Shown: positions 1 through 64,000, numbered from the stretch's first letter. The stretch: 64,000 nucleotides of DNA from an uncultured Chloroflexota bacterium (GCA_900696625.1 CAADGU010000415.1:3875-67874), one strand, 5' to 3'. A program made the numbers and translations. The notes: generated by a model from the sequence alone, not told the origin.

Positions 1-548
1 AACAAAGCACCGGGCGCATCATCCATATCCCCAACGGCCTGGTGTTGAAAGAACCGTTAGTCAACACCCACCAGGGCTACCCCTTCATCTGGAACGAAAT
101 TCCGGTGATGGTCACATTTGAAAGCGACTGGGAAAAGGCCAAAGCCATCCTGACCAACATCATCCAGGAGTTGGCGCCCGACATCAGCGAAGGCATCCGC
201 CAGTATGAAAAGCGCCCCGACCGCTTTGTCATTTCCTATGGCAGTTTAGCGCCAATCATTTATACTCGTGTCGCCGACAGCGGCGTGTTATTGACTATGC
301 GCTATCTGGTAGACCCGCGCCGCAAACGGGGCAGCGAAAACGAAATTTGGGAGGCGGTCTTACGCGCCTTCCGGCTGCATGAGGACATTGATTTTGCCTA
401 CCCCACGCAGCGCGAGTTTTTACATTTTCAAGAAGGAAAAAAACCTTACGCGCCCACAACCCAGGAAGAGCCAACCGTTGTTTCCCACAAAGCATGGATG
501 ACATCTGATACCGGTTTCCGGCCCATTCCACCGAAAAAGGACGAGTAA
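1..548 (+). CDS. mechanosensitive ion channel (MscS family), C-terminal part; 5' end lies outside the window
   Basis: The frame is open from nt 3 (..GRIIHIPNGLVLKEPLVN..). This is an MscS-like beta-domain 'IPN' segment followed by a C-terminal domain. Stop at 546-548. Confidence 0.6.
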   Translation, partial: QSTGRIIHIPNGLVLKEPLVNTHQGYPFIWNEIPVMVTFESDWEKAKAILTNIIQELAPDISEGIRQYEKRPDRFVISYGSLAPIIYTRVADSGVLLTMRYLVDPRRKRGSENEIWEAVLRAFRLHEDIDFAYPTQREFLHFQEGKKPYAPTTQEEPTVVSHKAWMTSDTGFRPIPPKKDE

Positions 549-585
549 CGGCCGTAACCCGTAATCCGTAATCGGTAATCGGTGA
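545..585. repeat. short-unit array (GTAAYCS units: gtaacccgtaatccgtaatcggtaatcggtgaacgg)
   Basis: Read directly from the sequence, immediately after the stop of the MscS gene. Belongs to the heptamer-array family seen at other gene ends. Confidence 0.6.
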
Positions 586-620
586 ACGGTATGCTGCCGT
601 GCGTTTTAGGATTGATTGCT

Positions 621-2438
621 ATGATAAAACTGACTTCTGATCAACAAGCCATGCTCGATGGTGAACGCGGCGTGGCCGCGCAAATGGCGATGCGCCTGCT
701 GCTGGATATGGCCGCCGCCGCCAATGCCAGCGAACTGATCCCCATTCAGAGCGCCCACCTCTCCGGCGTCTCGCCGCTGACAGGTGGGCTGGGGCTGCGC
801 CAATTCCTGGCCAAACTGGCCCAAGACCCGCAGGCCAAAGTGGCCGTGCCCACCACGCTCAATGCCGCCGGCTGTGACGAAAACCAGTTTGAGGCCATGC
901 GCATCACCGCCCCCCACTTCCGGGAACACAACCAGGAAATTGTGGCCGCCTACACCCGGCTGGGTGTGCGCCCTACCCAATCCTGCATTCCCTACGAATG
1001 GGAGGGGGTAGTGGTCAACGGCCCAGCGGCCTGGGCGGAATCGAACGCCATCTGTTTTGGCAATTCTTACACCGGGCTGCTCACCAACCGGGAATCGGGG
1101 CTGTCGGCATTGGCCTGCGCCCTGACAGGCTACACCCCCCGCTACGGCCTTCTGGACGAAGCCGCCCGCCGCCCCAACCTGGAAGTGATCGTCACCACGC
1201 CATTGAGCGACCCCACCGACTTTTCTGTTTTGGGCGATTGGATTGGCAAACAGCGCACACCGGCCTGGAAAACGCCCTATGGCCCTATTCCGCTGATTAA
1301 AGGGCTGCCCACCGATTTGAACCACGAGCAAAAGAAGGCGTTGACAGCCGCTGCCGCTAACTATGGCAGCCCGTTACTCTATCTGGACGGGCACGGCCCT
1401 GTCCCGGACGGGGATTTTCAGGCACAGTTGGTTTTTGGCGAGGGAGAATTGAGGGAACGGTATGAAAAGTTACGGCCGTCCCAATCCCCCTCCCTCATCG
1501 CCATTGGCTGCCCCCAGGCGTCGGTTGGGGAACTACGCGCGGTGGCCGAACTGCTCAAAGGGCGACAGTTGCATCCTGATGCGCCGCCGCTGTGGGTCTT
1601 CACCTCCTCGGCCAACAAAGCCATTGCCCAAAAACTGGGCCTGGCCGACATCATTACCAACGCCGGGGCGCTGCTGCTGGAAAACACCTGCCCGGAAGTG
1701 GTGCCCTACGACCCCGCCTGGGTGCAATCCGTCCTCACCAACTCCATGAAAGCGGAGCATTACATCAAGTCCGGGCTGAATGGCGTCCCAACGGCCGTGA
1801 TGCGCCTGGCAGACTGCGTGGCTGTAGCCTTAGGGGAACTAGAGATTGGGAGATTGCCAACCGGAGGTTGGGGAGATTGGGAGATTGGTGATCACCCCCT
1901 CACCTCATCACCCCGCACTGTCCCCAGCGCCCACCCCCTCACCCCCTCACCTGCTCACCACTTACCGCTCACTGCTCACCGCTCACTGCCCACCGGCCCC
2001 TTCACCGCCACCGGTCACGGCTTGCCCTCCCAGCAAGCCTTCACCGTCACCGGCCAGGCGTTTGTGACGGACACGCCCATCACGTTGTTGGGTTTTGTGA
2101 ACCGGGAGACAGGGGTGATTGAAGAGGAAGGGCATCCGGCCAACGGCCGTAGCCTGGCCCACAAGATCGCCATCTTCCCCAAAGGCAGCGGCTCCACCGT
2201 CGCCCCCTACGTGCTGCTGGAACTGTTTTACCGGGGCAATGCCCCCCTGGCCATCGTCAACACCGAAATTGACCAGCAAAGCGCGCCTGCCTGTTCGCTG
2301 GAAGGCATCCCCTACGCCTACGACTTCGACGCTGATGTCATTGCCCACATCAACGACGGCGATACCGTTGAACTCAGCCGCCAGGGAGAGTACGTCACCA
2401 TTCGCGTCCTGGCCCGCCGCGAGATAAAACGTTTGTAG
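621..2438 (+). CDS. aconitase X (AcnX), fused catalytic (DUF521-like) + swivel (DUF126-like) domains, with a repeat-derived linker
   Basis: N-terminus 'MIKLTSDQQAMLDGERGVAAQMAM' and the body look like the AcnX large domain. C-terminus 'GRSLAHKIAIFPKGSGSTVAPYVLLEL..NTEIDQQ' looks like the swivel domain. ATG 621 is preferred over 582. It is one ORF with no stop across 1838-2008. Confidence 0.75.
   Translation: MIKLTSDQQAMLDGERGVAAQMAMRLLLDMAAAANASELIPIQSAHLSGVSPLTGGLGLRQFLAKLAQDPQAKVAVPTTLNAAGCDENQFEAMRITAPHFREHNQEIVAAYTRLGVRPTQSCIPYEWEGVVVNGPAAWAESNAICFGNSYTGLLTNRESGLSALACALTGYTPRYGLLDEAARRPNLEVIVTTPLSDPTDFSVLGDWIGKQRTPAWKTPYGPIPLIKGLPTDLNHEQKKALTAAAANYGSPLLYLDGHGPVPDGDFQAQLVFGEGELRERYEKLRPSQSPSLIAIGCPQASVGELRAVAELLKGRQLHPDAPPLWVFTSSANKAIAQKLGLADIITNAGALLLENTCPEVVPYDPAWVQSVLTNSMKAEHYIKSGLNGVPTAVMRLADCVAVALGELEIGRLPTGGWGDWEIGDHPLTSSPRTVPSAHPLTPSPAHHLPLTAHRSLPTGPFTATGHGLPSQQAFTVTGQAFVTDTPITLLGFVNRETGVIEEEGHPANGRSLAHKIAIFPKGSGSTVAPYVLLELFYRGNAPLAIVNTEIDQQSAPACSLEGIPYAYDFDADVIAHINDGDTVELSRQGEYVTIRVLARREIKRL
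1838..2008. repeat. composite repeat (GGGAGATTG units + CCAACC/GGTTGG hairpin + CTCACC/GCTCAC units), inverted copy of 4106-4266
   Basis: Long exact reverse-complement matches to 4106-4266 (for example gagattgccaaccggaggttggggagattgggagattggtgatcaccc, and ctcactgcccaccggccccttcacc). Lies in-frame inside the AcnX ORF. Confidence 0.85.
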
Positions 2439-2485
2439 TAGGCGATTTATCGCCTGCAAAGGGCGATAAATCGCCTACTACAAAC
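2431..2485. terminator. perfect 24-bp inverted repeat (hairpin) overlapping the AcnX stop codon; no U-tract
   Basis: gtttgtagtaggcgatttatcgcc (2431-2454), loop tgcaaag, ggcgataaatcgcctactacaaac (2462-2485). The TAG stop at 2436-2438 lies in the left arm. Confidence 0.4.
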
Positions 2486-2510
2486 GACAAACCTGTTACA
2501 AGGATACACA

Positions 2511-3731
2511 ATGTCGCATGACTTATTAGATTTATTACTGGCGCTGGTCATCATCGTCATTGCCGCCAAAGCATGTGGCTACCTCAGCATGAGGTTGGGG
2601 CAGCCCTCGGTGTTGGGTGAACTGATGGCCGGCATCATTCTTGGCCCCACCCTGCTCAATATCTTCCACACCATACCCGCCTTTAACGACTCGGAATTGT
2701 TGAGCATCACGGTGGCCGAGTTTGCCGAGTTGGGGGTGCTGGTGCTGATGATGCTCGCCGGGCTGGAACTGCACCTGTCCGATTTGCTCAAATCCGGCAA
2801 AGTATCGGCGATTACGGGGACGATGGGCGTTTTTGTGCCGGTGGTGTTGGGGTATGGCACGGCCGTACTCTTTGGTCTGAGTTCTACAGAAGCCTTGTTT
2901 GTGGGCATCGCCCTCTCCGCCACCAGCGTCAGCATCTCCGCCCAAACACTGATGGAGTTGGGCGTCTTACGCAGCCGGGTGGGCATTGCCTTGTTGGGCG
3001 CGGCCGTGTTTGATGACATCCTGGGCATCCTCCTGCTCTCCGTTGCCTCGGCGCTCTTCATCGGCGCCAGCAGCAGCCGTGACTCCGTCGGCATGGTCGT
3101 CTTCCGCATGGTCGCCTTCCTCGGCGGCGCCGGTATTCTGGGCTACCTGTTCATCCCCCGCCTCACCCGCTGGATTAACAGACTGGAGATTTTCCAGGGA
3201 CTCATCGCCTTCGCCCTGGTGTTGTGCTTTCTCTACGCCTGGGCGTCTGAAGCGATCGGTGGCGTGGCCGGCATCACCGGCGCCTTTATGGTGGGGCTCA
3301 TGTTGGGGCTGACCCCCTATCGCTCAGAAATCATCAACGGCCTTTCCGCCATTGCCTATGGCCTGTTTGTGCCCGTCTTCTTTGTGAACATTGGCCTGAA
3401 CGTGGACTTGTTGAGCATTAGCGGTTCGGCCTGGATTTTTGCCATCACGCTCACCACAGTCGCCATCCTCAGCAAGGTTGTTGGCTGTGGGTTGGGCGGG
3501 CGTCTGAGCGGCTTCACCAACCGGGAATCGCTGCAATTGGGCATCGGCATGGTTTCGCGCGGTGAAGTTGGCCTGATTGTGGCCGCCTTCGCCATTTCTC
3601 AGGGCGTATTAAGCCAAAACACATTCTCCATTATCGTGTTTATGGTCATCATCGCCACCTTAGTCACACCGCCTATGCTGCGCAATGCTTTCAGAGGACA
3701 GGCGCAAAAACAACCGGCAAAAGGAGTTTAG
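2511..3731 (+). CDS. cation:proton antiporter (CPA2 / Kef-type Na+/H+ exchanger family)
   Basis: 406 aa and polytopic. Typical CPA N-terminus 'LLLALVIIVIAAKACGYLSMRLGQPSVLGELMAGIILGP'. SD aagga upstream of the ATG. Confidence 0.85.
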   Translation: MSHDLLDLLLALVIIVIAAKACGYLSMRLGQPSVLGELMAGIILGPTLLNIFHTIPAFNDSELLSITVAEFAELGVLVLMMLAGLELHLSDLLKSGKVSAITGTMGVFVPVVLGYGTAVLFGLSSTEALFVGIALSATSVSISAQTLMELGVLRSRVGIALLGAAVFDDILGILLLSVASALFIGASSSRDSVGMVVFRMVAFLGGAGILGYLFIPRLTRWINRLEIFQGLIAFALVLCFLYAWASEAIGGVAGITGAFMVGLMLGLTPYRSEIINGLSAIAYGLFVPVFFVNIGLNVDLLSISGSAWIFAITLTTVAILSKVVGCGLGGRLSGFTNRESLQLGIGMVSRGEVGLIVAAFAISQGVLSQNTFSIIVFMVIIATLVTPPMLRNAFRGQAQKQPAKGV

Positions 3732-3733
3732 CA

Positions 3734-4111
3734 ATGTACCATATGGTTCTTCTCATTTTGAATGATCTGGATGACTGCACACCCGTCCTGGACGCCTGGG
3801 AAGCATTGGGTGTTGGCGGCATCACCATCCTGGAAAGCACCGGTCTAGGCCATGCCCGCAAATCAGGCATCCGCGAAAACATGCCCACCATGCCCTCGCT
3901 GGCCGACTTCTTCCGCCGTTCCGAACACCGCCACCGTACCATTTTCACCGTTGTAGACAGTGAGGAAATGGCCGATAAGCTCATTGAGGTCACGGAACAA
4001 ACCCTCGGCAATTTAGAAAGCGCCGACAATGGCGTCTTGTTTGTGCTGCCGGTTTCCAAAGCCAAAGGCATTCGCGGCGGCCAAAAACGGGCGCAGGAGC
4101 GGCGGGGGTGA
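3734..4111 (+). CDS. PII-like (GlnB-fold) small signalling protein
   Basis: 125 aa. 'MVLLILNDLDDCTPVLDAWEALGVGGITILESTGLG' aligns by eye with the beta1-alpha1-beta2 of PII proteins. SD aaggag. Starts 2 nt after the antiporter stop. Confidence 0.5.
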   Translation: MYHMVLLILNDLDDCTPVLDAWEALGVGGITILESTGLGHARKSGIRENMPTMPSLADFFRRSEHRHRTIFTVVDSEEMADKLIEVTEQTLGNLESADNGVLFVLPVSKAKGIRGGQKRAQERRG

Positions 4112-4266
4112 TGGGGTGAGCAGGTGAAGGGGCCGGTGGGCAGTGAGAGGTGAGCGGTGAGCAGGTGAGGGGGTGATGGGGTGATGGGGTGATGAGGTGA
4201 GGGGGTGATCACCAATCTCCCAATCTCCCCAACCTCCGGTTGGCAATCTCCCAATCTCCCGATTAC
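4106..4266. repeat. composite repeat, inverted copy of 1838-2008
   Basis: ggtgaaggggccggtgggcagtgag and gggtgatcaccaatctcccaatctccccaacctccggttggcaatctc are exact reverse complements of segments in 1838-2008. Overlaps the last codons of the PII-like gene. Confidence 0.85.
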
Positions 4267-4316
4267 TGTGGCCGATCTCCAGACATAGCCACATAGGGAT
4301 ATACGGCCGTACCTAC

Positions 4317-5276
4317 TCACTCACCAACCACACGTTCAATAAACGCCCGGCTTTCGGCAGCGATCACGTCGGGGGCATAGTTGTGCAGATAATGGGGCAC
4401 ATCCAGCGCCAGAGATTCTCCCCCGGCGGCGGCCGCGTAAGCGATCAAAATGTCAGGCCAGTTGTCCAGCGCCACATCGGAAGCGTTGGAGACAAAAAAG
4501 AAGAGGGGAACGTCGGGGATACCTGTAGCGGCTACCAGTTGCGGATTGCCTGTGGCCTTTATTTCGGCCAGCATGTTGGGCGTCAGGGTGCGCCGGTAAA
4601 AGAGGGAGCAGAAGACGGCCGTTTCTTCGGCCGTTAAATGCCCTTCGCTAACAGCGGCAAACTCGTGACACACGGATGCTCCTGACCGGATCACCCCCGT
4701 GCGCGCCGCAAACGTGATGACGGAAAGCATCAATTGCGGCGGCGGCGGCATGACTTCATAAATTTCAGGCAAGGCCGGGTCCAGCCCCACAATGGCCGCC
4801 ACCTCATCGGGATAGAGGTTGGCCCAATAAAGCGCCTCCAACCCGGCCATCGAGTGCGGAAACAACACGTAGGGCGGACTTTCCCCCGCCAGTTGCAGCG
4901 CCAGGCGTGTTTCGGCCAGGACGGTGTCAATGTCGCGGGGCGTGTCGCCTATTTCGCTCCAGCCATAACCGGCCCGCTCCACAACGGCAATACGGTATTC
5001 GTCTGAGAGGCGGCTGTAGAGCGCCTTGAAATCCAATGTGGGGGCGCTGGTGCCGCTGCCCGACAGAAAAACCAGCGTCAATGGCCCCTCCCCTGATCCC
5101 TCCCCTTCGCTGTAAACGTGCAACTTATGGTCCCCCACGGCGACCATTTGGCCCGGCGGCGGATAGAGTGTTTCTTCTTGCACCGAACGAATCGTGTGAT
5201 TGACAAAACTACCCCCAATCAACAGCACCAGTAAAATAACAATTCCCAGGGTAATCCATTTGAGTACTCGTTTCAC
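4317..5276 (-). CDS. alpha/beta hydrolase with N-terminal membrane anchor
   Basis: 319 aa. N-terminal TM segment, nucleophile elbow 'HSMAG', and the typical 'LVFLSGSG' segment. Confidence 0.75.
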   Translation of the reverse strand: MKRVLKWITLGIVILLVLLIGGSFVNHTIRSVQEETLYPPPGQMVAVGDHKLHVYSEGEGSGEGPLTLVFLSGSGTSAPTLDFKALYSRLSDEYRIAVVERAGYGWSEIGDTPRDIDTVLAETRLALQLAGESPPYVLFPHSMAGLEALYWANLYPDEVAAIVGLDPALPEIYEVMPPPPQLMLSVITFAARTGVIRSGASVCHEFAAVSEGHLTAEETAVFCSLFYRRTLTPNMLAEIKATGNPQLVAATGIPDVPLFFFVSNASDVALDNWPDILIAYAAAAGGESLALDVPHYLHNYAPDVIAAESRAFIERVVGE

Positions 5277-5346
5277 TATGACCTCACTTCATTAAAAAAA
5301 GTTCATCTTTTCCCAAAAGTTGAACTTTTGGGAACCTGGTTGAAAG

Positions 5347-7218
5347 CTAGTCCAGATGCGCTTTCACCGCTTCGGCCACTTCCACGGGGATGCCGGGCAC
5401 GGTGGCGATCTCCTCGACGGTGGCCTGGCGAATGCCGTCTAGCGAGCCGAAGCGATCGAGCAGCAGTTTGCGCCGCTTGGGGCCAACACCGGGGATGCCG
5501 TCCAAAATGGAAGCCGTGCCCACCTTTGACCGCTGCTTGCGGTGCCCCTCGTTGGCAAAACGGTGCGCCTCGTCCCGTACCCGCTGCACCAGATACAACC
5601 CCTGCGACCGCCGATCCAACAGAATGGAGCGGGGGTTGCCGGGCACAAATAACTCTTCCTCTTGTTTGGCCAGACCGGCCAGCGGCACTTCCCCTTCCAG
5701 CCCAAATTCGCGCAGCACATGCACAGCCATACTCAACTGCCCCTTGCCGCCGTCCACAATGAGCAGGTCGGGCAAGATGGCCCAGGCCGTATCTTTTTGC
5801 TTGCCGATCTGGCTGGCATCATGCAGTTCACCGTCCAGCGATTCCTGGTAACGTTGGAAGCGGCGGGTAAGTGTCTCTTTCATCGCGCCAAAGTCGTCAT
5901 TGGTGACGGTGCGGATGTTAAAGCGGCGGTAGTCGCTCTTTTTGGGCGCGCCCTGCACAAACACGACCATGGAGGCAACGGTGTTGGTACCCTGTGTGTG
6001 GCTGATGTCGTAACATTCGATGCGAGCGGGCGGTGTGGGCAGATTAAGCGCCTCTTGCAGTTCGGCCAGGGCCTGTACGTGTTTGGAGCGGTCGGCTTCC
6101 CACTGCTGGCGGATGGTGTTCAGGGTGTCCTGGGCGTTGGTGGCGGCCATTTGCACCAGCTCTTTTTTCTTGCCCTTTTGGGGCACGGTGATGGTGACTT
6201 TGGTGCTGCGTTTCTGGCGCAGCCACTCTTCGATGACCATGGCTTCGGAGACTTCGCTGGGCAGCAGCACTTCTTTGGGGATGTGGGCGGCTTCGTCGTA
6301 GAAGCGGGTGAGGAAGTCGCTGAGGATGGTTTCGTCGCTTTCGCCTTCGGCATTGTCTAGCATGAAGTATTCACGGCCGATCAATTTGCCGTAGCGGATG
6401 AAAAAGACCTGAACGCAGGCGTCGCCCTGGTCGCGGGCAAAGGCGATGACGTCCTGGTCGGCGTTGGCGGCGGAGATGACTTTTTGTTTGGCGGTGACTT
6501 TGGTCACGGCCGTTAACTGATCCCGATACTCTGCCGCCTTCTCAAATTGCAAATTTTCCGCTGCCCGCGCCATCTTTTGCTCTATCTCTTTGGCAATGTG
6601 TTCCGACTTGCCATTCAGAAAATCCATCAGGTTTTGAATCATAGCCCGGTACTGTTCCCGGTTCACCGCGCCAATGCAGGGGCCGTTGCACAGCTTGATG
6701 TCATAGTACAGGCAGGCGCGTTCGTCTTGCCCATTGATGATGCGGTCACACGTCAGGTAGGGGAAAATTTTGCGCAGCATGTCCAGCGTCTGATGCACGG
6801 CCCAGACAGAGGTGTAGGGGCCAAAGTAACGCGCCCCGTCCCGCTCCATGCGCCGGGTGACGGTCACTTTGGGGAAATCATCCTGCCAATGCACCTTGAT
6901 GTAGGGGTAGCGTTTATCGTCTTTGAGGCGGATGTTGTATTTGGGCTTGTGCTTTTTGATGAGGGTGTTTTCCAGCAGCAGCGCTTCCAGTTCGCTTTCG
7001 GTGGTGATAATTTCCAGGTCGAAGATTTCGCGGCGCAGGCGGGACGTTTTGATGGAGTCTACATTTTCGTGGAAGTAGGAACGGACGCGGCTGCGCAGGT
7101 TAATCGCTTTGCCCACGTAAATGATCGTGCCGTACTTATCTTTATGTAAATAAACGCCTGGTTTGGCGGGCAGTTTTTTCAGGATTTCCTGGATGCTTTC
7201 GGGGGGAAGGTAACTCAT
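5347..7218 (-). CDS. uvrC: excinuclease ABC subunit C
   Basis: 623 aa. GIY-YIG N-terminus 'PGVYLHKDKYGTIIYVGKAINLRSRV', UvrBC domain, and C-terminal (HhH)2 'IPGVGPKRRKLLLDRFGSLDGI'. Confidence 0.95.
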   Translation of the reverse strand: MSYLPPESIQEILKKLPAKPGVYLHKDKYGTIIYVGKAINLRSRVRSYFHENVDSIKTSRLRREIFDLEIITTESELEALLLENTLIKKHKPKYNIRLKDDKRYPYIKVHWQDDFPKVTVTRRMERDGARYFGPYTSVWAVHQTLDMLRKIFPYLTCDRIINGQDERACLYYDIKLCNGPCIGAVNREQYRAMIQNLMDFLNGKSEHIAKEIEQKMARAAENLQFEKAAEYRDQLTAVTKVTAKQKVISAANADQDVIAFARDQGDACVQVFFIRYGKLIGREYFMLDNAEGESDETILSDFLTRFYDEAAHIPKEVLLPSEVSEAMVIEEWLRQKRSTKVTITVPQKGKKKELVQMAATNAQDTLNTIRQQWEADRSKHVQALAELQEALNLPTPPARIECYDISHTQGTNTVASMVVFVQGAPKKSDYRRFNIRTVTNDDFGAMKETLTRRFQRYQESLDGELHDASQIGKQKDTAWAILPDLLIVDGGKGQLSMAVHVLREFGLEGEVPLAGLAKQEEELFVPGNPRSILLDRRSQGLYLVQRVRDEAHRFANEGHRKQRSKVGTASILDGIPGVGPKRRKLLLDRFGSLDGIRQATVEEIATVPGIPVEVAEAVKAHLD

Positions 7219-7238
7219 GGGTTAAGTCTCAAATTGTT

Positions 7239-7303
7239 GGAGATCAGGAGATTGGGGGATTGGGAGATTGAAAAGCATAATCTCTCAGCCTCCTAATCTC
7301 ATT
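7239..7303. repeat. heptamer array GGAGATY x4 followed by inverted AATCTC units
   Basis: ggagatcaggagattgggggattgggagattg aaaagcat aatctctcagcctcctaatctcatt. Lies between the vapC stop and the uvrC start. Confidence 0.7.
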
Positions 7304-7304
7304 C

Positions 7305-8273: not shown

Positions 8274-8282
8274 AGATAACTT

Positions 8283-56575: not shown

Positions 56576-57658
56576 TTGTCAGGTGTTTTGAGGCCCAAAC
56601 GCCCCACGCGGGCGGGGCAGAAGGTGGCGGTGTTTTTGGCTGCGGATTATGAAAAGGGCAGCTACTTTGCGGCGTTGCAAAAGTTTCTGGAAAAGCAACA
56701 GGCGCGGGGGCTGTCGGTCTATACGGTGGCCCGACTGTATTACAGTCTGTACCCCATTGGCGTGGCGGCGGAGAATGCGCCGCTGACGGCTTTGTCGCCG
56801 GAGTGGCTGCGGGAATATCTGGACGATCTGTGGCGGACCCACGCGCCGGAGACGCTGCGCACACACACGGCCGATGCCCGCCAGTTCTTTAAGTGGTGCA
56901 AGAAAAAGGGGCATCACCCGTTAAACATCGCCAGAGGTATCCGGCCTGTGCGCTACCGGCCGCAACGGCGGCGGCGGGTCACGGCGGCGCCGGAAGCGGA
57001 TGTACGGCAGGTGATGGCGCATCTGGCGGGGCTGCTGCGGGCGTCTGACCTGGTGTACCGCGACCTGTTCCGCACGCTGCAAGCGGCGGAGACGGGGTGG
57101 ACGGAGGAGACGGTGCGGGCGCTGCGCGACCTGCTGATCCTGGCCTTCTTGTACGAGACCGGGGCGCGGGTGGGGGAGTTGTCCCGATTGGGGTCGGCGG
57201 CGATGGATGAGGCAATACGGCAGCCCCAGAGTGTTTACCAGGTGACGGTGGTGGGCAAGACTAACGACCGCGAGCGGTATTTCACCACGTACACGGCCGA
57301 ATTGTGGCGTCTCTGGCAGCAGGTACGGCCGGCGCCGGCGCGGGAGTTTGCGGTGGTGGGGTGGCGCGGCGGCCGGGAAGCGGATGCGGAGCAGATGCGC
57401 ACCAATGGCGTCAGCCAGATGTTGGAGCGGCGCTGCATTCAGGCCGGGGTACGGCCGTTTCGGGCGCAGTCCTTACGCCACGCCAAAGTGAAGCGCAGCC
57501 GGCAGCAGGTGGGCATGGAGTTGGCGGCGGTGCTGATTGACCACAGCACCATCCGCTCTACCTGGAACTACGTCAACATAGATGACGATGAGATTAGCCA
57601 GGCGGTGGTGGCCACGGGGCTGCAAACCGACCTGTGGGTGGGGCAAGGAGGGGAATAG
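56576..57658 (+). CDS. int: tyrosine integrase adjacent to attR
   Basis: TTG 56576 lies 6 nt after aaggagg. 'GARVGEL', 'RAQSLRHAKVKR', 'LIDHSTIRSTWNYV' contain R..HxxR..H..Y residues. Ends 60 nt before attR. Confidence 0.85.
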   Translation: MSGVLRPKRPTRAGQKVAVFLAADYEKGSYFAALQKFLEKQQARGLSVYTVARLYYSLYPIGVAAENAPLTALSPEWLREYLDDLWRTHAPETLRTHTADARQFFKWCKKKGHHPLNIARGIRPVRYRPQRRRRVTAAPEADVRQVMAHLAGLLRASDLVYRDLFRTLQAAETGWTEETVRALRDLLILAFLYETGARVGELSRLGSAAMDEAIRQPQSVYQVTVVGKTNDRERYFTTYTAELWRLWQQVRPAPAREFAVVGWRGGREADAEQMRTNGVSQMLERRCIQAGVRPFRAQSLRHAKVKRSRQQVGMELAAVLIDHSTIRSTWNYVNIDDDEISQAVVATGLQTDLWVGQGGE

Positions 57659-57717: not shown

Positions 57718-57759
57718 TTGACATCGTAGAGGTCACAAGTTCAAGTCTTGTACCGCCCA
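57718..57759. repeat. attR core (displaced 3' part of tRNA-Val; not a functional tRNA)
   Basis: Identical to 14725-14766. The upstream sequence does not supply the 5' half of a tRNA. Confidence 0.9.
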
Positions 57760-57773
57760 TCGGCAAAGAAAAA

Positions 57774-57799
57774 GCCACCGGTCAACCGGTGGCTTTTTT
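57774..57799 (+). terminator. intrinsic terminator (native tRNA-Val terminator)
   Basis: gccaccgg (57774-57781), loop tcaa, ccggtggc (57786-57793), then tttttt. Confidence 0.75.
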
Positions 57800-57882
57800 G
57801 CTTGAACGCTGCCCCCAGCAGTTAAACACCTCATGCCAGAGGTGGCGCGTTTTTCATACCGTTTGATCCGTTCTGATTCTGG

Positions 57883-59823
57883 CTACCCCGGCAAATTTTC
57901 AATCTCTACCGGCTTCACCGGGTCAGCCAGGGTAAAACCAAACACCCGGCTGTAAAAATAAAGTTCACTATCCAGCGCCCGTTTGATGTTATCGGCGCGG
58001 CGGAAGCCGTGCTGCTCCCCGGCAAAGGGTACATAAGCTACCGGCAGCCCCTTCGCTTTGACCGCCGCAAACATCATCTCCGCCTGGTTGGGTGGCACCA
58101 CCAAATCTTCCAAGCCCTGGAATAAAATGAGGGCGCAGTTGATCCGGTCAATAAAGTGAATGGGCGACCGCTGCACATAAATCTCTTTGCCCTCCGGGTA
58201 AGGGGCGATGAGGGTGTCCAGGTAACGGGATTCAAATTTGTGGGTTTCCACGGCCATCGCTTCCAGGTCGCTGATGCCGTAATGGCTGGCCCCGGCGGTA
58301 AACGTATCGTCAAAGGTGATGGCACAGAGGGTGGTGTAACCGCCGGCGCTGCCGCCACGAATGGCTAAGCGGCGTTCGTCGGCCAATCCTTGCGCCACCA
58401 GATAACGGGCGGCATTGGCGCAATCTTGCACATCCACCACACCCCAGGTTCCGTTCAGGCGCTGGCGGTATGCACGGCCGTAACCCGTGCTGCCTCCATA
58501 ATTCACATCCACCACCGCAAAACCCCGGCTGGTAAAGTATTGAATGCCCAGATTCAGCGTGGCATTGGCGGCGCTGGTAGGGCCGCCGTGGCTCAGCGTC
58601 AGCAGCGGCGGCTTATCGCCAGCGGGCGCGGTGAAATCCCGGTTCTGCGGCGGGTAATAAATGGCGTGCGCCGTCAGGCCGTTGGCGGTGGGGAATTCAA
58701 TGGCTTGTGGCGTAGACAGATACGCGGCGTCTACGGTCAACTGGGTAGATTGCTTGAGTACCTGCCACTGCCCGGTATGCAAGTCTAACCGGATGATGGA
58801 CGACGGCCGTGTGGCCGCCCCACCGGAAAAGGCGACAAATCCCGGCCCCACCTGCACCGAGCCAATGGAAGTAAAGGGCAAGTCAAAATCTGTCAGTTGG
58901 CCGCTGTTCACATCCAGCCGCGCCAGCCGCCACACCCCATTTTGGGTATAGGCGCAAATGATGGTGTGGGCGTCGGCAAACCCATAGGTGGACATGCGGA
59001 AAACCCACTGCGGCAGGCCAAATTCGGCATCCATGGGGCAAATGGCTTCCACCTGCCCCCCGCGCCAGCGGTACAAATTCCACCAATTGCTGCGGTCAGA
59101 CACAAAGTACAATGTGCCATCCGGCGACCAGCGAGGCTGGAAGACGGATTCATCTGGGCCACCGGCAATCAGGGCGAGATTGTGTACGGCCGTGCCTGTT
59201 TCATCCAGTTCCGCCAGCCATAGTTCCGTGCCATCCCAGGGCATGTTAGGGTGCCGCCACGTCAGCCAGGCCAGTTGACGGCCGTCGGGGCTGAGGCTGG
59301 GCGACGCATAAAAATCATTGCCCGCCGCCAGCGTCTCGCCAATTTCATTACTGCCATCCAGGTTCAGGCTCACCAACGAATTAACCGCTTCCTCGCCCTG
59401 CGTCAGGTGCGCCTCGCGGATGCAGACCATGCGCCCGCGGCGGGCGTCTACCACGCCATCAGCAAAACAGAGCTTTTCATTGGCCGTCAACGGTTCTGGT
59501 TCGGCGTAGGGATATTGCACATACACGCGCTGGTCCACAAAATTGCTGAAGTAAACGGCCTCATCATGGATGGTAAATGAGCCGCCGCCATATTCGTGAA
59601 CACGGGTGCGCACGTTAAAACCGGCGGCGCTCATCTCTTCAATGCCGCCGGTTGGCGTCCACTTCACCAGGGCGTTACGGCCGTTTTCTGAGGGCCGCAT
59701 TTCCAGCCAATAAATCGCTTCACCATCTAATTGAATTTCACCCAGTCCAATCGAACCAGCCACGATTAAACTAGAGGTAATCGGAGATTTCCACGAACCA
59801 TAAGGAGCAATTTCACCATTCAT
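57883..59823 (-). CDS. S9-family serine peptidase (prolyl oligopeptidase / acylaminoacyl-peptidase type)
   Basis: Beta-propeller N-domain, 'IRGGSAGGYTT' nucleophile motif, and a C-terminal Asp/His region. ATG 59823 (MNGEIAPYGSWKSP) is preferred over 59946. Confidence 0.85.
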   Translation of the reverse strand: MNGEIAPYGSWKSPITSSLIVAGSIGLGEIQLDGEAIYWLEMRPSENGRNALVKWTPTGGIEEMSAAGFNVRTRVHEYGGGSFTIHDEAVYFSNFVDQRVYVQYPYAEPEPLTANEKLCFADGVVDARRGRMVCIREAHLTQGEEAVNSLVSLNLDGSNEIGETLAAGNDFYASPSLSPDGRQLAWLTWRHPNMPWDGTELWLAELDETGTAVHNLALIAGGPDESVFQPRWSPDGTLYFVSDRSNWWNLYRWRGGQVEAICPMDAEFGLPQWVFRMSTYGFADAHTIICAYTQNGVWRLARLDVNSGQLTDFDLPFTSIGSVQVGPGFVAFSGGAATRPSSIIRLDLHTGQWQVLKQSTQLTVDAAYLSTPQAIEFPTANGLTAHAIYYPPQNRDFTAPAGDKPPLLTLSHGGPTSAANATLNLGIQYFTSRGFAVVDVNYGGSTGYGRAYRQRLNGTWGVVDVQDCANAARYLVAQGLADERRLAIRGGSAGGYTTLCAITFDDTFTAGASHYGISDLEAMAVETHKFESRYLDTLIAPYPEGKEIYVQRSPIHFIDRINCALILFQGLEDLVVPPNQAEMMFAAVKAKGLPVAYVPFAGEQHGFRRADNIKRALDSELYFYSRVFGFTLADPVKPVEIENLPG

Positions 59824-59997
59824 AGGTCTAAATGATAATCGGCATTGGGCATTTCGCCAACAGTAGGGCAAGGCAAGTGGGCATAATCTTGTCTGGCGAG
59901 ACAAATCTACCTTTACCCTTACAATCGTGATACCTGTCACTTGCACACTTGCCTACTTTATCTTTATACTCCTGTAACGTCGTCACAGGAGGAATGG

Positions 59998-60672
59998 ATG
60001 AACGACTTCACTTTAAGCCCCCCACCGATGCCAACACCGGGCAGCGCCGCCTATGTGGTGGTAGAGCGGGGACCAGCACCAGACACACGATATGACATCA
60101 CGGCCGTTACCAACACCATCGGCCGTTCTCCCCAAAACGAGATTGTGATCAATGACCCGGAGATGTCACGGCGGCACGCCCAGATTGTGCAGCAGGGCGA
60201 CCATTTTGTCGTGTCTGACCTGGGCAGCACCAACGGCACCTTTGTCAACGGCCAACGCTGCACCGGGGCTACCTCCTTGCGTCATGGCGACCGGATCGAG
60301 TTTGGTGATACCGTCAGTCTGCTTTTTTACCAGACGGCCGTGCCCTACCAGACCATGCCCTCCCCCCCGGTTCACCTGGAAGACGAAGACACGGCCGATC
60401 TGCCGCCGGTGAAACCACCACCCCGGCCCCCCGTCGCCGTCCCTTATGCCCAAGACCAGTATCTGCCCGCCGACGCGGAACAACCGGCCGGCCGCAGCAA
60501 CCGGCTGGCGCTAGGTTGTGTGCTGGCGCTGGTGCTGCTCACCTGCTGCTGCGGCATCATGCTCGTGGTGTTAGACAGTTACCAACAGGGGCAATACCTG
60601 TACTGTGGCGGTTTACGGCCGTTGTGGGAATTGGTGTTAGGGCCTCTGGGGTTTAATCCGTTGTGCCCGTAA
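59998..60672 (+). CDS. FHA-domain protein with C-terminal TM segment
   Basis: 'TIGRSPQNEIVINDPEMSRRHAQIV..VSDLGSTNGTFVNG' is an FHA pattern. ATG 59998 follows caggagga. Confidence 0.8.
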   Translation: MNDFTLSPPPMPTPGSAAYVVVERGPAPDTRYDITAVTNTIGRSPQNEIVINDPEMSRRHAQIVQQGDHFVVSDLGSTNGTFVNGQRCTGATSLRHGDRIEFGDTVSLLFYQTAVPYQTMPSPPVHLEDEDTADLPPVKPPPRPPVAVPYAQDQYLPADAEQPAGRSNRLALGCVLALVLLTCCCGIMLVVLDSYQQGQYLYCGGLRPLWELVLGPLGFNPLCP

Positions 60673-60748
60673 GCCGTGATCGGCTTACGGCTTTCGGCTT
60701 ACGTCTTGTTTTTTTATCACACCTTTGTTGTGAAAAAGGAGAATAAAA

Positions 60749-62305
60749 ATGGACAGATTTCAAGATTTCCTCGTGGACACACTGGGTAACAGCCTGCTTA
60801 ACTTGTTAGCAGCGTTAGTTATCCTCGTTGTTGGTTATGTGGTGGCGCGGCTGGTGGCAGGGCTGCTGCGCCGCCTGTTGCAGCGCGTTCGGCTCAATGA
60901 ACGGGTTGCCACCCGGTTCAGCAAAGACTTTGGCCTGCCCGAAGTCAATTTAGAAAGCCTGATTGCCACCATTGTCTTTTGGTTACTGCTCATCTTTGTG
61001 TTCGTGGCTGTGGTGGAACGGCTGAACCTGGTCATTGTAGCCCAGGCCATTGGGCCACTGCTGACCAGTATTACCAGTGATTTCCTGCCGGGTCTCGTTT
61101 CGGCGCTGCTGCTGCTCCTGTTAGCCTGGGTACTGGCAGTCATTTTCAAGGCGATTGTGATCAAAGTCTGCGCCGTGGCCAAACTGGATGAGCGCATGAC
61201 CAAACATGGGGCGCTGCGCGAAGGGGAACAGGTCTCCATTAGCGAATCGCTGGGCGTGACCGTCTTCTGGCTCATCATCCTGCTGTTTATCCCGGCGATA
61301 TTGGATTCGTTGGGGATCACGGCCGTGTCGCAACCCTTTCAGCAGGCCACCGCTGCCTTCTTCACCTATTTGCCTAACATCGTCTCCGCCATCGTCATCT
61401 TTGTGGTGGGCTGGCTGCTGGCGCGGGTGCTGCGCCAGCTTGTCACCAGCCTGCTGGCGGCCATCCGCGTGGTAGACAGCCTGGGTGAACGGGTAGGGCT
61501 GCGCGGCGAACAATCACTTTCCCGGCTGCTGGGCACCATCACCTACGCCATCGTCATGCTCATCATCCTCATTGCCGCTCTGGATGCACTCAACATTGCC
61601 GCTATTTCGGTACCAGCTATCTCCATGCTCACCATCATCCTGACGGCCATCCCCTCCTTCATCGGCGCCGTGCTGGTGTTGGTTATTGCCTACTTCATTG
61701 CCCGGCTGGTGATGGGCCTGGTGGTGGATGTACTCAGCGGGATCGGGTTTGACAGATGGCCGGCCTCCCTGGGCATCAACTACACCGGTACACGCACTCC
61801 CTCCCAACTGGTAGGCTACCTGCTGTTGGTGGGCATCATGCTCTTGGCCGCCGTAGCTGCCGCCGATTTACTCAATTCAGCGGCGCTATCGCTCATTTTG
61901 ACCACCATGGTAGATTTCTTCTTCCGGGTGGTGCTGGCGCTGGTGATCATTGCCTTTGGCCTCTATTTTGCCAATCTGGCGCAAAGTGTAGTCGCTGGTG
62001 CAGGTGGGGCCAACGGCCGTGTCTGGGGCATAGCCGCCCGCATTGCCATCCTCATTCTGGCCATCGCCATGGCGTTGCGCCAGCTGGGGCTGGCCGACGA
62101 TATTGTCAATCTGGCCTTTGGCCTGATTCTAGGGGCCATTGCCCTGGCTGCCGCCCTGGCCTTTGGCCTGGGTGGGCGTGAAGTCGCCGGGCGGGAACTC
62201 AACCGTATGGTTGGCCGGATGCGGTCGGAGGAAGTGCAAACAATCCTCACCCCACCCTCTCCCTGGCAGGAAGAAGGCATGGATCCCTCCTCCCTTGAAA
62301 GGTGA
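60749..62305 (+). CDS. polytopic membrane protein with conserved-TM-helix repeats (mechanosensitive-channel-related family)
   Basis: 518 aa. Repeated 'N(L/I)..A(L/I)VI(L/F)VVG(Y/W)..AR(L/V)' units. SD aaaggaga. Confidence 0.6.
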   Translation: MDRFQDFLVDTLGNSLLNLLAALVILVVGYVVARLVAGLLRRLLQRVRLNERVATRFSKDFGLPEVNLESLIATIVFWLLLIFVFVAVVERLNLVIVAQAIGPLLTSITSDFLPGLVSALLLLLLAWVLAVIFKAIVIKVCAVAKLDERMTKHGALREGEQVSISESLGVTVFWLIILLFIPAILDSLGITAVSQPFQQATAAFFTYLPNIVSAIVIFVVGWLLARVLRQLVTSLLAAIRVVDSLGERVGLRGEQSLSRLLGTITYAIVMLIILIAALDALNIAAISVPAISMLTIILTAIPSFIGAVLVLVIAYFIARLVMGLVVDVLSGIGFDRWPASLGINYTGTRTPSQLVGYLLLVGIMLLAAVAAADLLNSAALSLILTTMVDFFFRVVLALVIIAFGLYFANLAQSVVAGAGGANGRVWGIAARIAILILAIAMALRQLGLADDIVNLAFGLILGAIALAAALAFGLGGREVAGRELNRMVGRMRSEEVQTILTPPSPWQEEGMDPSSLER

Positions 62306-62324
62306 GAGGCAGGGTTGGCGTTCA

Positions 62325-63830
62325 TTACTCTCCCGCCAACCACCGGCTGAAAAAGGCAGCCAGCGATTTGCTGGCTGCCGCTTCCATTACCGCGATGAAT
62401 TCTTCATCGCTGGCTGTGCCGTGGGCGTATTGCTGGAAATAGGTTTTCAGACCGGCAAAAAAGGCGTCATCGCCCATTTCCTGGCGTAGTTCATGCACCA
62501 TGAGTGCGCCGCCAATGTAGGTGTAGGCGCTGAATAGTTCGGCGGGTGGTGGGTTGCGTAATGGTTTACCCAATTCGTCGTTGTCTTCCAAAAAGGCGCG
62601 GATGCCTTCCATTTGCAGTTCCAGCCCTTCGGGGTCGTCACGGTTTTCCCACATAAAGGAGATGTAGGTGGCAAAGCCTTCGTTGCGCCACATTTCGCCC
62701 CAGGAATCCAGGCTGACCCAATCGCCAAACCACATATGCGCCAGTTCGTGGACGGCAACGTTCTCATCAAACATGCCCGTAGACAACAGCACCATCGTCT
62801 GCGTCTCTAGCGAGACGCCCGGCGCGTGAACGGAGACGAAGCCAAATTCCTCATATGGGTAGACGCCAAACAGGTCGCTCATCCAGTCAATGGCTTCGCC
62901 GGTAGCCGTCGTAGCCCGCTCAAATGGGGGTTGGCTCATGGGGAAGACATAATCACGCAGGGGGACGCCGGCCGGGGATTGAGAATCCAGCCGCACATAT
63001 TCGCCAACGGCAATGGTCGCCAGGTAGGAAGCCATGGGATAGTTGTGTTCCCAGATGAAGGTGTTGTTTTCTTGGGCAATGAGACGGCCGTTGGCCACGG
63101 CCGTTAACCCCTCTGGCACGGTAATCTCAAAACGGTACGTTGCCTTGTCACGCGGGTGGTCATTGTTGGGGAACCAGTAACGCGCCCCATCTGGCTCCGA
63201 CAGCACGTAAATGGTGTTTTCCCGCGCATAAAACAACCCCAGCCAACTGGCAAAACCAACATAGGGCGAACGCGCCTGCTCGGCTTTACCCTGGTAGCGG
63301 ATGGTCAACTGAAACTGTTCTTCGGAAGCCAACGGTTCGGGCAGCGTGATGACCAATTTGCCCTCTTCGCGGCGAAAATTAGCAGGCTGCCCATTCACCA
63401 GCAGTTCGTCAATCTCAAAGCCGATAAAGTCCAGCGACATCTCCCCCAGATTGTCCAGCGCCGCCACCGCCTCAATGGTGGCGACGCCAGCGAGTTCATA
63501 CGGTTGGGCTGGGTCCAGATTGACCTGAATGGTGTAGTGCAGTACATCATAACCCGTGTTGCCCAGTTCCGGCGCATACGGGTCGCCGATGGTGCGCTCC
63601 CCGGCGACCATATCGGTGGTCACGGCCGTGCCCGGGGACACGCCGGCGCTGAGAGCAGACGAAGTGGCCGTGTGAGTGGGTGCAGCCGTGACTGTCGGCG
63701 TCGCCAGCGTTGCCGGATCAGCTTCTACAATCGTCCTATCCACCAGGCCACAGCCCAGCACCAGTGATAGACCCAGCGCCAACCCTACCAGTTTAATGTT
63801 TGCCATAAGAGCCTCTCTTTTTGCTTGCAT
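62325..63830 (-). CDS. M1-family zinc aminopeptidase (lipoprotein signal)
   Basis: 'HELAHMWFGDWVS..WRNEGFATY' is HExxH-18-E. GAMEN-like region. N-terminal 'LGLSLVLGCG' lipobox. Confidence 0.9.
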   Translation of the reverse strand: MQAKREALMANIKLVGLALGLSLVLGCGLVDRTIVEADPATLATPTVTAAPTHTATSSALSAGVSPGTAVTTDMVAGERTIGDPYAPELGNTGYDVLHYTIQVNLDPAQPYELAGVATIEAVAALDNLGEMSLDFIGFEIDELLVNGQPANFRREEGKLVITLPEPLASEEQFQLTIRYQGKAEQARSPYVGFASWLGLFYARENTIYVLSEPDGARYWFPNNDHPRDKATYRFEITVPEGLTAVANGRLIAQENNTFIWEHNYPMASYLATIAVGEYVRLDSQSPAGVPLRDYVFPMSQPPFERATTATGEAIDWMSDLFGVYPYEEFGFVSVHAPGVSLETQTMVLLSTGMFDENVAVHELAHMWFGDWVSLDSWGEMWRNEGFATYISFMWENRDDPEGLELQMEGIRAFLEDNDELGKPLRNPPPAELFSAYTYIGGALMVHELRQEMGDDAFFAGLKTYFQQYAHGTASDEEFIAVMEAAASKSLAAFFSRWLAGE

Positions 63831-63905
63831 TTTTATTCTCCTCTCGCCATACTCACCCCAGTTTGAACCGTTTTACGCTATTAGACAAATAAAAGATGAG
63901 AGTGG

Positions 63906-63950
63906 GTGAGGCCAATCTCTTAATCTCCTAATCTCTCAATCTCAAATTTC
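63906..63950. repeat. heptamer array (AATCTCY)n
   Basis: ggccaatctcttaatctcctaatctctcaatctcaaat, upstream of the M1 peptidase gene. Confidence 0.7.
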
Positions 63951-64000
63951 CTCGGAGAACAACCCTTGACCGACAATCCCAAACTCCGCCCGCTCGACTA

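Follow-up and report, generated by a model that had tools for sequence, protein, structure and literature searches.

Why a single eight-base palindrome should be the commonest word in a stretch of bacterial DNA, and what keeps it there, is the question raised by 64,000 nucleotides from an uncultured Chloroflexota bacterium (GCA_900696625.1, CAADGU010000415.1:3875-67874), here called the window. The octamer ACGGCCGT is found 119 times in this window, in a prophage (14767-57759) as well as in the host DNA to its left (1-14766) and right (57760-64000). An earlier reading made from the sequence alone (the sequence-only reading) had likened the octamer to HIP1 (highly iterated palindrome 1; GCGATCGC) of cyanobacteria. 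This view is borne out, since the enrichment survives composition, Markov and codon-shuffle models, extends through a whole clade and is kept at synonymous positions. ACGGCCGT is a highly iterated palindrome (HIP) of one family-level, uncultured lineage of Anaerolineae that has arisen independently of HIP1. The palindrome is made and kept site by site by a process at the level of DNA rather than by selection on proteins, in one bacterial family and in its phages.

Abundance, saturation and conservation of the octamer

ACGGCCGT is the commonest of all 8-mers in the window (59.3% GC) and reaches a density of 1,860 copies per Mb. Dinucleotide shuffles of the window lead to an expectation of 1.8 copies (maximum 7), in agreement with the roughly two copies estimated by the sequence-only reading, and Markov models of orders 1 to 3 predict 1.6 to 8.5 copies (order 1, 1.6; order 3, 8.5). 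The expectation rises to 25 for order 4 and to 89 for order 6, but since such models absorb sub-words of ACGGCCGT itself, these higher values are no evidence against the enrichment. For a codon-aware null, 81 genes were called with a simple codon-usage model and synonymous codons were shuffled gene by gene, which preserves every protein and the codon usage of each gene. These shuffles yielded 12.3 +/- 3.0 copies (maximum 20) within genes, compared to 84 observed. The observed-to-expected ratio (O/E) of ACGGCCGT amounts to 66-73 for orders 0-1, 14 for order 3 and 6.8 for the codon shuffles. The sequence-only reading had considered that a codon-aware model might bring this ratio close to 1; with the codon-aware model it lies far above 1, and the enrichment therefore stands.

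Being palindromic, the 119 sites have no strand. They start at 548, 1472, 1791, 2143, 2859, 4303, 4615, 6506, 8180, 8370, 8803 and 9365 (1-10000); at 10236, 10313, 10403, 11182, 12214, 12786, 13261, 13746, 14962, 16142, 16457, 16768, 16802, 16861, 17248, 17258, 17357, 17398, 18087, 18166, 18491, 18655, 18665, 18743, 18945 and 19909 (10-20 kb); at 20258, 20503, 20994, 21552, 22217, 23117, 23649, 23675, 24219, 24368, 24690, 24916, 25238, 26573, 26941, 27723, 27993, 28495 and 29861 (20-30 kb); at 30358, 30368, 30453, 30723, 31247, 31761, 32509, 35564, 36013, 36296, 36665, 37011, 37221, 37920 and 39837 (30-40 kb); at 41795, 43542, 43611, 43680, 43887, 43956, 46118, 46145, 46284, 46491, 46517, 46707, 46731, 46769, 46968, 47436, 47449, 47940, 48690, 49119 and 49662 (40-50 kb); and at 50089, 50421, 50466, 50529, 50662, 51711, 52278, 52588, 53985, 54311, 54679, 56548, 57451, 58474, 58803, 59186, 59278, 59677, 60100, 60334, 60615, 61319, 62013, 63084, 63097 and 63622 (50-64 kb). 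The earlier hand counts of 12 copies in 1-10000, 16 in 16100-19000 and 13 in 57800-64000 were exact.

Genes hold 83 of the 119 sites, in all three frames: 42 are read as ACG GCC GTn (TAV), 25 as xAC GGC CGT ([NDHY]GR) and 16 as xxA CGG CCG Txx (xRPx). The remaining 36 sites are non-coding, and their density is 2.5-fold higher there (3.8/kb in non-coding vs 1.5/kb in coding DNA). Use of the three frames and occurrence in both kinds of DNA had already been described by the sequence-only reading. The copies share no consensus beyond the eight bases, so that ACGGCCGT is not part of a longer repeat. At the kb scale of the 64-kb window the spacing of the sites cannot be distinguished from a Poisson process (coefficient of variation 1.00). 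Regular spacing was rejected on this ground, and there is no sign of selection for it. An exception from the Poisson pattern is a slight surplus of tight pairs, with five gaps of 9-14 bases compared to 1.3 expected.

For a comparison set, 80 related loci were retrieved from genome contigs via UvrC, whose gene (uvrC, 5347-7218, minus strand; Pfam) served as phylogenetic anchor. The UvrC relatives place the window in the uncultured Chloroflexota, class Anaerolineae. Related metagenome-assembled genomes (MAGs) carry the labels Promineifilaceae, Ardenticatenaceae, Ca. Leptovillus and Ca. Leptofilum, and the nearest UvrC proteins are 96-98% identical. In about 23 loci from independent MAGs, with a UvrC at least 75% identical to that of the window, the first rank among 8-mers belongs to ACGGCCGT or to AACGGCCG, which overlaps it; these loci have 1-2.7 copies/kb and a GC content of 49-59%. 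About 46 loci from other Anaerolineae (UvrC about 60% identical) lack the motif. Counting in relatives, as proposed by the sequence-only reading, thus showed a motif that is clade-wide in independent MAGs and absent elsewhere in the class.

The inner hexamer CGGCCG is 2.5-13-fold over first-order expectation in nearly all loci with a UvrC identity of at least 72%. In four loci (L025, L026, L032 and L033) the hexamer stands bare and octamers are practically missing, the majority of loci carry the octamer, and four others (L006, L008, L010 and L022) tend towards a decamer, AACGGCCGTT, with AA at 67-83% of the pooled core half-site flanks. The CGGCCG core is constant, while the outer bases vary by sublineage (none, A..T or AA..TT). 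One of the hexamer loci, L026 (JBLIMP010000009.1), bears the label Cellvibrionaceae, yet with a UvrC identity of 72% to the Chloroflexota query and with CGGCCG at 13.5 times the expected level it probably represents a contig of Chloroflexota that was mis-binned. Restriction-type palindromes were counted in the window and in loci L001-L031 and L034-L080. Strong avoidance was seen in the window for GGGCCC (1 vs 44 expected), CCCGGG (2 vs 31), CCGCGG (18 vs 57) and AGGCCT (3 vs 26). The relatives likewise avoid GGGCCC (13 vs 188 expected), and other Anaerolineae avoid GGCC itself (2374 vs 3732). This suggests ApaI-, SmaI-, SacII- and HaeIII-like restriction pressure in the class. Since the classical targets GGGCCC, CCCGGG and CCGCGG are strongly avoided in this DNA, CGGCCG is no restriction target there.

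How completely the motif has been written into genes can be expressed as saturation, i.e. the octamer-bearing fraction of those positions in called genes where synonymous codon choice permits an octamer. In the host flanks saturation reached 29/30 (97%), with 15/15 for TAV, 10/10 for [NHDY]GR and 4/5 for x(A)RP(T). The corresponding values were 281/301, 134/153 and 59/81 (474/535 in total) in 25 relatives' loci, and 27/30, 15/30 and 10/18 in the prophage. From codon usage alone about 17% would be predicted for TAV (ACG 0.32 x GCC 0.54), and the [NHDY]GR frame needs CGT, a rare Arg codon (0.12).

The motif has also left its mark on proteins. In host genes of the clade TAV occurs 5.8-fold over composition, compared to 0.8-2.0 for the five permutations of T, A and V, and NGR occurs 4.9-fold over composition. 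Long open reading frames (ORFs) taken without gene calls gave a TAV O/E of 5.9 in the octamer clade, 0.97 in hexamer-only relatives and 0.75 in other Anaerolineae; for NGR the values were 4.6, 2.3 and 1.1. At motif positions of UvrC, TAV is found where sister species have KAV, RAV or MAV and outgroups have QAI, NAI or RAV, and NGR where other species have NGK, TGK or TGQ. The motif sites of UvrC hence coincide with replacements of K, R or M by T (TAV) and of K or Q by R (NGR). Due to these replacements, and because both peptides are enriched only in motif-bearing genomes, TAV and NGR are a consequence of the DNA motif and not its cause. Abundant peptides, which the sequence-only reading had named as a possible source of the enrichment, do not explain it.

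Existing sites are kept to an unusual extent. In the alignment with L003 (80-88% nucleotide identity) 15 out of 15 sites are preserved, against a background of 31% identical 8-mers; for L001 the values are 11/12 vs 39%, and for L002 (MAG CFX8) 15/19 vs 59%. In a test pooled over all species pairs of the clade, sites with conserved amino acids were compared to frame-matched controls that are likewise conserved. The motif was nucleotide-identical at 27 of 30 sites (7.1 expected) for high-scoring segment pairs of 70-75% identity, at 22 of 22 (8.1 expected) for 75-80% and at 46 of 48 (19.2 expected) for 80-85%. In 393 kb of clade DNA with 577 perfect sites, variants with one mismatch in the core are depleted (O/E 0.2-0.8), and one-mismatch variants are enriched at positions 1 and 8 only. 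Among the core variants the C-to-T neighbour ATGGCCGT/ACGGCCAT is the least depleted (O/E 0.8).

The prophage, its hexamer signal and its methyltransferase

The prophage is an integrated temperate siphophage-like element of about 43 kb with att repeats, two integrases, TerS, TerL, a portal, a major head protein and a tape measure. Its left end lies at a tRNA-Val(GAC) gene (14693-14768, plus strand; ARAGORN), whose 3' 42 bases (14725-14766) represent attL; attR (57718-57759, plus strand) is an exact 42-base copy, a direct repeat of the tRNA 3' end. MAG CFX8 is syntenic with the left flank at 91% nucleotide identity as far as 14767, and the synteny with L001 also stops there. Because synteny ends at the tRNA 3' end, the 42-base repeat is present and phage genes lie in between, the element is a tailed, temperate phage that has inserted at tRNA-Val. 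In GCA_014584575.1 a related prophage (86% nucleotide identity) adjoins a Band_7 (SPFH) gene, as does the prophage of the window.

The sequence-only reading had taken the motif to be denser in the prophage than in the flanks. For the octamer the difference is only nominal, with 86 copies or 2.00/kb in the prophage vs 1.57/kb in the host flanks (binomial p = 0.28), and within coding DNA the densities are 1.51/kb and 1.58/kb, respectively. The nominal excess is due to non-coding DNA, chiefly to a hot spot at 16.1-19.0 kb around an integrase gene. For CGGCCG, however, the claim is correct. The prophage has 347 copies (8.07/kb, 3.3-fold the host value), 25% of them within the octamer, compared to 2.43/kb and 65% in the host flanks. 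In prophage genes 274 copies were observed vs 88 +/- 8 in codon shuffles, and in host genes 48 vs 23 +/- 4; 30 of these 48 are octamers, and host CGGCCG outside the octamer is at chance level. The density of CGGCCG changes in a sharp step near the ends of the element, at about 16 kb and 58 kb. Hexamers occupy 63-75% of accessible positions in the prophage vs 31-54% in the host.

In a related phage (72% identity) 36 of 57 non-octamer hexamers of the prophage are conserved, compared to 12.8 expected, and at conserved amino acids 30 of 34 are kept (11.1 expected). The conservation of 36 of 57 sites argues for active maintenance of the phage hexamers and not for a fading imprint. An imprint from a former hexamer-type host is disfavoured, as the sites are still well conserved among phages living in octamer-type hosts. 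YGGCCR was rejected as the phage unit: TGGCCA and CGGCCA/TGGCCG are about 2-fold over expectation vs 10-fold for CGGCCG. Of 26 TerL-related IMG/VR contigs from other hosts 25 are without the motif, and the closest one (L081) carries it. The motif therefore follows the host lineage and not the phage lineage. A scan of IMG/VR for motif pairs returned seven contigs, of which one (L111) is truly motif-rich; it has a host-like signature with most CGGCCG inside the octamer.

A candidate enzyme is encoded in the prophage itself. The gene at 23928-24800 (plus strand; ATG at 24111 as a possible alternative start) lies between terminase and portal and codes for a DNA methyltransferase of the beta-class N6/N4 type (PHROG DNA methyltransferase, E = 9e-19; Pfam PF01555, 75 bits, cut-off 26.7). 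No restriction-enzyme partner was seen beside it. In its family motif I reads DPCCGAGT and motif IV reads TS(T/P)PYPG, the Ser of which is invariant. A Ser at motif IV (Ser-Pro-Pro-Tyr) is the signature of N4-cytosine enzymes, while N6-adenine enzymes have Asp or Asn. By sequence, TTHA0409, M.MboIIA and also N4-cytosine methyltransferases are among the best structural relatives. The position of the gene among packaging genes suggests late, lytic expression, so that the enzyme would act on phage DNA and not on the host chromosome.

A large protein database holds 54 homologues of this methylase. Palindromic hexamers were examined in ten homologue-encoding loci (51-95% identity) from at least four phage backbones. 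CGGCCG is the most over-represented in nine of the ten loci and the second in L125. It occurs at 9-10 per kb in L119-L123 and at 5.7 per kb in L124 with 50% GC; observed vs expected numbers are 93 vs 4.7 (L126), 22 vs 4.4 (L127), 41 vs 9.8 (L128) and 22 vs 7.0 (L125). Some of these loci have a second methyltransferase near the PF01555 gene, namely a MethyltransfD12 (Dam-like) gene in L122 and a second PF01555 gene in L124, both adjacent, and a PF05869 Dam gene in L125. The PF01555 position in related phages appears to be a variable methylase cassette.

The sequence-only reading had also suggested a cognate methyltransferase or Vsr gene as partner. The window and about 0.5 Mb of DNA from relatives lack both a Vsr and a C5-methyltransferase, but the N4/N6-type methylase of the prophage is present. 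With E. coli Vsr and Dcm as queries, tblastn detected nothing relevant in the window, in the 80 host loci or in the phage loci. A search of the window genes with PCQ (C5) and DPPY-type patterns had a sole match, SPPY in an alpha/beta hydrolase, which is spurious; it missed the real prophage methylase because the motif of the latter is STPY. PHROG and Pfam scans of the early-region prophage genes detected no nucleic-acid-modifying function except a DnaD-like domain.

Pairs of octamers also form secondary structures. In our own hairpin search of the window all 11 strong hairpins with the CGGCCG core in the stem belong to the prophage, and none was among the host-flank hairpins. The motif hairpins reported by the sequence-only reading are real and extend over 18655-18672, 21531-21560, 23736-23774, 30349-30384 and 49639-49668. 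Built from the motif, the second of these resembles a terminator (21531-21570, plus strand; AGCGGCCGTCCAC-TTTT-GTGGACGGCCGT, then TTTTTGTTTT) and is located between the gene at 21127-21498 and terS. The hairpin at 23736-23774 (plus strand), downstream of terL, has the arms AACGGCCGCG and CGCGGCCGTT. A 36-base inverted repeat of two octamers (30349-30384, plus strand), with a 17-position stem, one mismatch and a 2-base loop, directly follows the major head protein gene. Further examples are a 19-position stem with CGGCCG in both arms (44635-44674, plus strand), an octamer pair between two minus-strand genes (47434-47458) and the hairpin CGGCCGTTGCCCC...AGCAACGGCCG at 49639-49668. The hot spot at 16100-19000 contains 16 mostly non-coding octamers (5.5/kb), including the pairs 17248/17258 and 18655/18665 (ACGGCCGTTAACGGCCGT). 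It surrounds the integrase gene at 17321-18343, which has 70% GC and 16.6 CGGCCG/kb. At 43536-43772 (plus strand) a 69-bp (23-codon) unit is repeated in frame and in tandem (Tandem Repeats Finder: 3.4 copies, 95% matches), with one octamer per unit starting at 43542, 43611 and 43680.

Other features of the window concern the make-up of the element and its surroundings. Around the integrase gene at 17321-18343 there are two tandem repeats. A 26-bp unit is present 4.8 times at 17009-17132 (94% matches), about 190 bp upstream, each unit forming TGATCCGCC...GGATCA hairpins; these repeats may be arm-type or iteron-like binding sites. The 14-bp unit CAACAGCATGCCGG is present 5.6 times at 18398-18476 (98% identity), immediately downstream. 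A second tyrosine integrase is encoded at 56624-57658, so that one lies near each end of the element, and att copies are only two. The element could be composite or in tandem, or a phage with a second recombinase; its split in two via a third att copy was rejected. The 1491-aa phage gene at 37828-42303 is lower in GC (0.56) than its neighbours and has CGGCCG at half their density, the gene at 15276-16028 has no CGGCCG, and 14769-16100 has one hexamer. These regions look like more recently acquired modules of a mosaic phage.

The left host flank holds AcnX, Na/H exchanger, UvrC and SPFH genes (Pfam), the tRNA-Val gene and 20 octamers, and the right flank genes for an S9 peptidase, an MscS-like channel and an M1 peptidase (Pfam) and 13 octamers. 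Host-flank hairpins without the motif are found at 2430-2486, 5297-5329 and 57769-57798. The first of them, 57 bases with a 25-position stem, spans the 3' end of the AcnX gene (612-2438). Host intergenic regions at 4104-4209 and 8947-9018 carry G-rich short tandem repeats (GGTGAGGG-like units, AGTGAGC x10). The genes called on identical public contigs include a VapBC-like pair, an RHH antitoxin with a PIN toxin, which adjoins uvrC at 7305-8019. ARAGORN places a tRNA-Leu(CAG) on the plus strand at 11303-11378, within a minus-strand ORF (10807-11865/11931) lacking a Pfam match; either this tRNA is spurious or the ORF around it has been called wrongly.

A proposed methylation-linked drive and its alternatives

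Near-saturation, forced amino-acid changes, the higher density in unconstrained DNA, random spacing and the depletion of core variants point to a directional drive rather than to a function served by a modest density of sites. The engine that we consider most likely, with a probability of about one half, is a strand bias linked to methylation, which would arise either during mismatch repair or when recombination or uptake heteroduplexes are resolved. It is favoured by the adenine-free constant core, the parallel to HIP1 and the cytosine-type methylase of the phage. The CGGCCG core would be read by a sequence-specific cytosine methyltransferase or by a partner protein. Methylation would then bias the choice of strand at mismatches or at recombination and uptake heteroduplexes, with gains of sites being fixed and losses reverted. 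Such a ratchet, which would extend the methyl-directed repair proposed by Elhai for HIP1, would convert nearly every place that proteins tolerate, change some amino acids to add sites and keep the existing ones. We infer which target is methylated, how methylation is coupled to repair or recombination, and any advantage that the cell may have. On the host side the octamer would be the unit that is read, while the N4-cytosine-type methylase of the phage would write a stronger hexamer signal on phage DNA only. More tentative is the extension that this is a second HIP system, outside cyanobacteria, in which the acting methyltransferase sets the unit of the drive: the octamer in the host (hexamer or decamer in sisters), and CGGCCG at 8-9 per kb under the presumably late N4 enzyme of the phage.

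Several points weigh against a methylation-linked drive. A specificity of ten bases (AACGGCCGTT) is unusual for a methyltransferase and would better suit a dimeric DNA-binding protein. We know of no repair bias that yields a 70-fold enrichment, and Vsr/Dcm of E. coli shifts frequencies modestly. Neither the host flanks of the window nor some 0.5 Mb from the loci of relatives contain a methyltransferase, Vsr or MutH-like gene. That the phage methylase occurs together with CGGCCG is a correlation, and this enzyme family may circulate among phages of CGGCCG-rich hosts. Elhai's rule of a G beside the methylated C misfits A-CGGCCG-T unless an inner cytosine is methylated. The pooled species pairs are phylogenetically related and their conservation counts are not independent events, although the effect is large.

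Alternatively, the motif could tag self-DNA for uptake or recombination, like the uptake signal sequences (USS) and DNA uptake sequences (DUS) and a newer view of HIP1; biased uptake and recombination would then act as molecular drive, with phages mimicking the tag. This is compatible with methylation, and we regard it as possible but rather unlikely. Its density of 1.5-2/kb and its fold-enrichment are within the range of USS/DUS and HIP1, the proteome is remodelled as for USS, motif pairs make terminator-like hairpins, and the core excess maintained by the phage could be mimicry. A palindrome is nevertheless unlike known uptake sequences, which are usually depleted in prophages, whereas this prophage is as rich in octamers as its host. 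All 11 core-using hairpins lie in the prophage and none in the host flanks, competence is only presumed for this uncultured lineage, and an excess of hexamers would be useless to the phage if the receptor reads the octamer. [quoted passage not shown] Sites selected as a set for binding an abundant nucleoid or chromosome-organising protein, as Xu et al. proposed for HIP1, are an unlikely explanation. Conservation does exceed that of matched controls, palindromic sites of 8-10 bases with lineage-specific outer bases suit a dimeric binder, and HIP1 is periodic at 10-90 kb (PMC5861425). Within 64 kb, however, the spacing is random, a saturation of 97% and forced amino-acid changes exceed structural needs, and the denser bare core of the phages would be left unexplained.

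Still less credit is given to a functionless by-product of very-short-patch (VSP) repair, in which a C5-methyltransferase and Vsr restore T:G mismatches as in the Dcm/Vsr system. It would fit a core composed of G and C with two CpGs, Dcm/Vsr is able to change oligomer frequencies, and of the four sites lost in the comparison of the window with L002, three show a transition at a core cytosine or its paired G. But the window and the loci of relatives yielded neither Vsr nor a C5-methyltransferase, conservation extends to the outer A and T, and the magnitude is far above the effect in E. coli. Core variants of all kinds are depleted, the C-to-T neighbour ATGGCCGT least, which is the reverse of what VSP repair would leave. 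An artefact arising from composition, from codon usage, from a handful of abundant peptides or from a mobile repeat of the repetitive extragenic palindrome (REP) or miniature inverted-repeat transposable element (MITE) type is refuted. The TAV frame makes up 42 of the 83 coding sites, but codon shuffles expect 12 copies where 84 are observed, TAV is enriched in motif-bearing genomes only and permutations of T, A and V are not, all three frames and non-coding DNA are used, the flanks lack a consensus, and the assemblies are independent, one being a complete chromosome.

HIP1 has been puzzling for thirty years and its analysis was confined to one phylum, so that an independent HIP in the Chloroflexota opens comparative tests. 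Its assets are a different sequence, a graded series of hexamer, octamer and decamer in close relatives, public long-read genomes that are complete or nearly so, and a phage family with its own version of the signal beside a candidate methyltransferase. It can thereby be asked which genes follow the motif type, whether the motif carries methylation or is periodic, and whether phages profit from mimicry. If the acting methyltransferase does set the unit of the drive in a second HIP system, methyltransferase-directed strand bias would be a general engine writing hyper-abundant palindromes into genomes and viruses, and the phages would represent a natural experiment on the purpose of HIPs. In practice the motif provides a strong barcode for contig binning and phage-host assignment in activated-sludge metagenomes. 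A process at the DNA level that is able to shift tripeptide frequencies about six-fold also matters when selection on these proteins is inferred.

Comparison with known systems

In the searchable literature, with subscription-only papers outside the search, no account of ACGGCCGT or of any HIP outside cyanobacteria was found; the sequence-only reading, too, knew of none for the motif. The literal motif turned up only in primers and constructs, and nothing relevant was found for CGGCCG combined with Chloroflexi or methyltransferase, or for 'iterated palindrome' with Chloroflexota. The newest part of the finding is the phage-specific hexamer signal together with its candidate enzyme. From REP and MITE elements the motif differs by the lack of conservation outside the eight bases and by 70% of intragenic copies. 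Like Chi of RecBCD/AddAB it resembles an over-represented 'self' signal protecting DNA; Chi is asymmetric, strand-skewed and few-fold enriched, whereas ACGGCCGT is palindromic and about 70-fold enriched. Dcm/Vsr at CCWGG in E. coli is a parallel in so far as a methyltransferase-linked repair bias, as we propose it here, shifts oligomer frequencies genome-wide. The Dcm/Vsr effect is small and limited to a single transition, whereas depletion affects every core variant here and the outer A/T matter, and contrary to a Vsr/C5 system no deficit specific to the C-to-T deamination neighbour was observed.

The USS of Pasteurellaceae and the DUS of Neisseriaceae lie in genes, affect peptides, terminate transcription as inverted pairs and are thought to spread by molecular drive; they are non-palindromic, depleted in prophages and have known receptors. 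ACGGCCGT resembles them in density, enrichment, location within genes with effects on peptides and terminator-like inverted pairs. In contrast to these asymmetric 9-12-mers it is a perfect palindrome without flanking consensus, and the prophage is fully loaded (2.0/kb vs 1.57/kb in the host).

The closest match is the HIP class, for which O/E values of 55-228 (Elhai; PMC4390886) and 15-300-fold enrichment (Xu; PMC5861425) at roughly 300-2700 copies per Mb were reported. HIP1 sites are conserved between genomes beyond the prediction from codons and amino acids (Xu 2018; PMC5861425), and HIP1 embeds sites of orphan methylases, its core CGATCG being the site of DmtC (PMC4390886). ACGGCCGT shares the features of this class in its abundance, use of all frames, conservation, flank-biased variants and palindromic extensions. 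Like HIP1 it is a palindromic octamer with about 1-2 copies per kb, a tens- to hundreds-fold enrichment, occurrence in every frame as well as in non-coding DNA, and a conservation among species that exceeds codon constraint. As in HIP1, it is mainly positions 1 and 8 that deviate, extensions particular to a lineage preserve the palindrome, and the inner core of six bases is a classic methyltransferase-type site that is not enriched outside the octamer in the host. The different phylum and the unrelated sequence speak for an origin independent of HIP1. The ACGGCCGT core has neither GATC nor adenine, its one-mismatch variants are depleted while one-off variants are common around HIP1, and a series of hexamer, octamer and decamer exists within one family. 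Furthermore, and unlike HIP1, the resident phages carry the motif together with a separate and stronger enrichment of the bare core.

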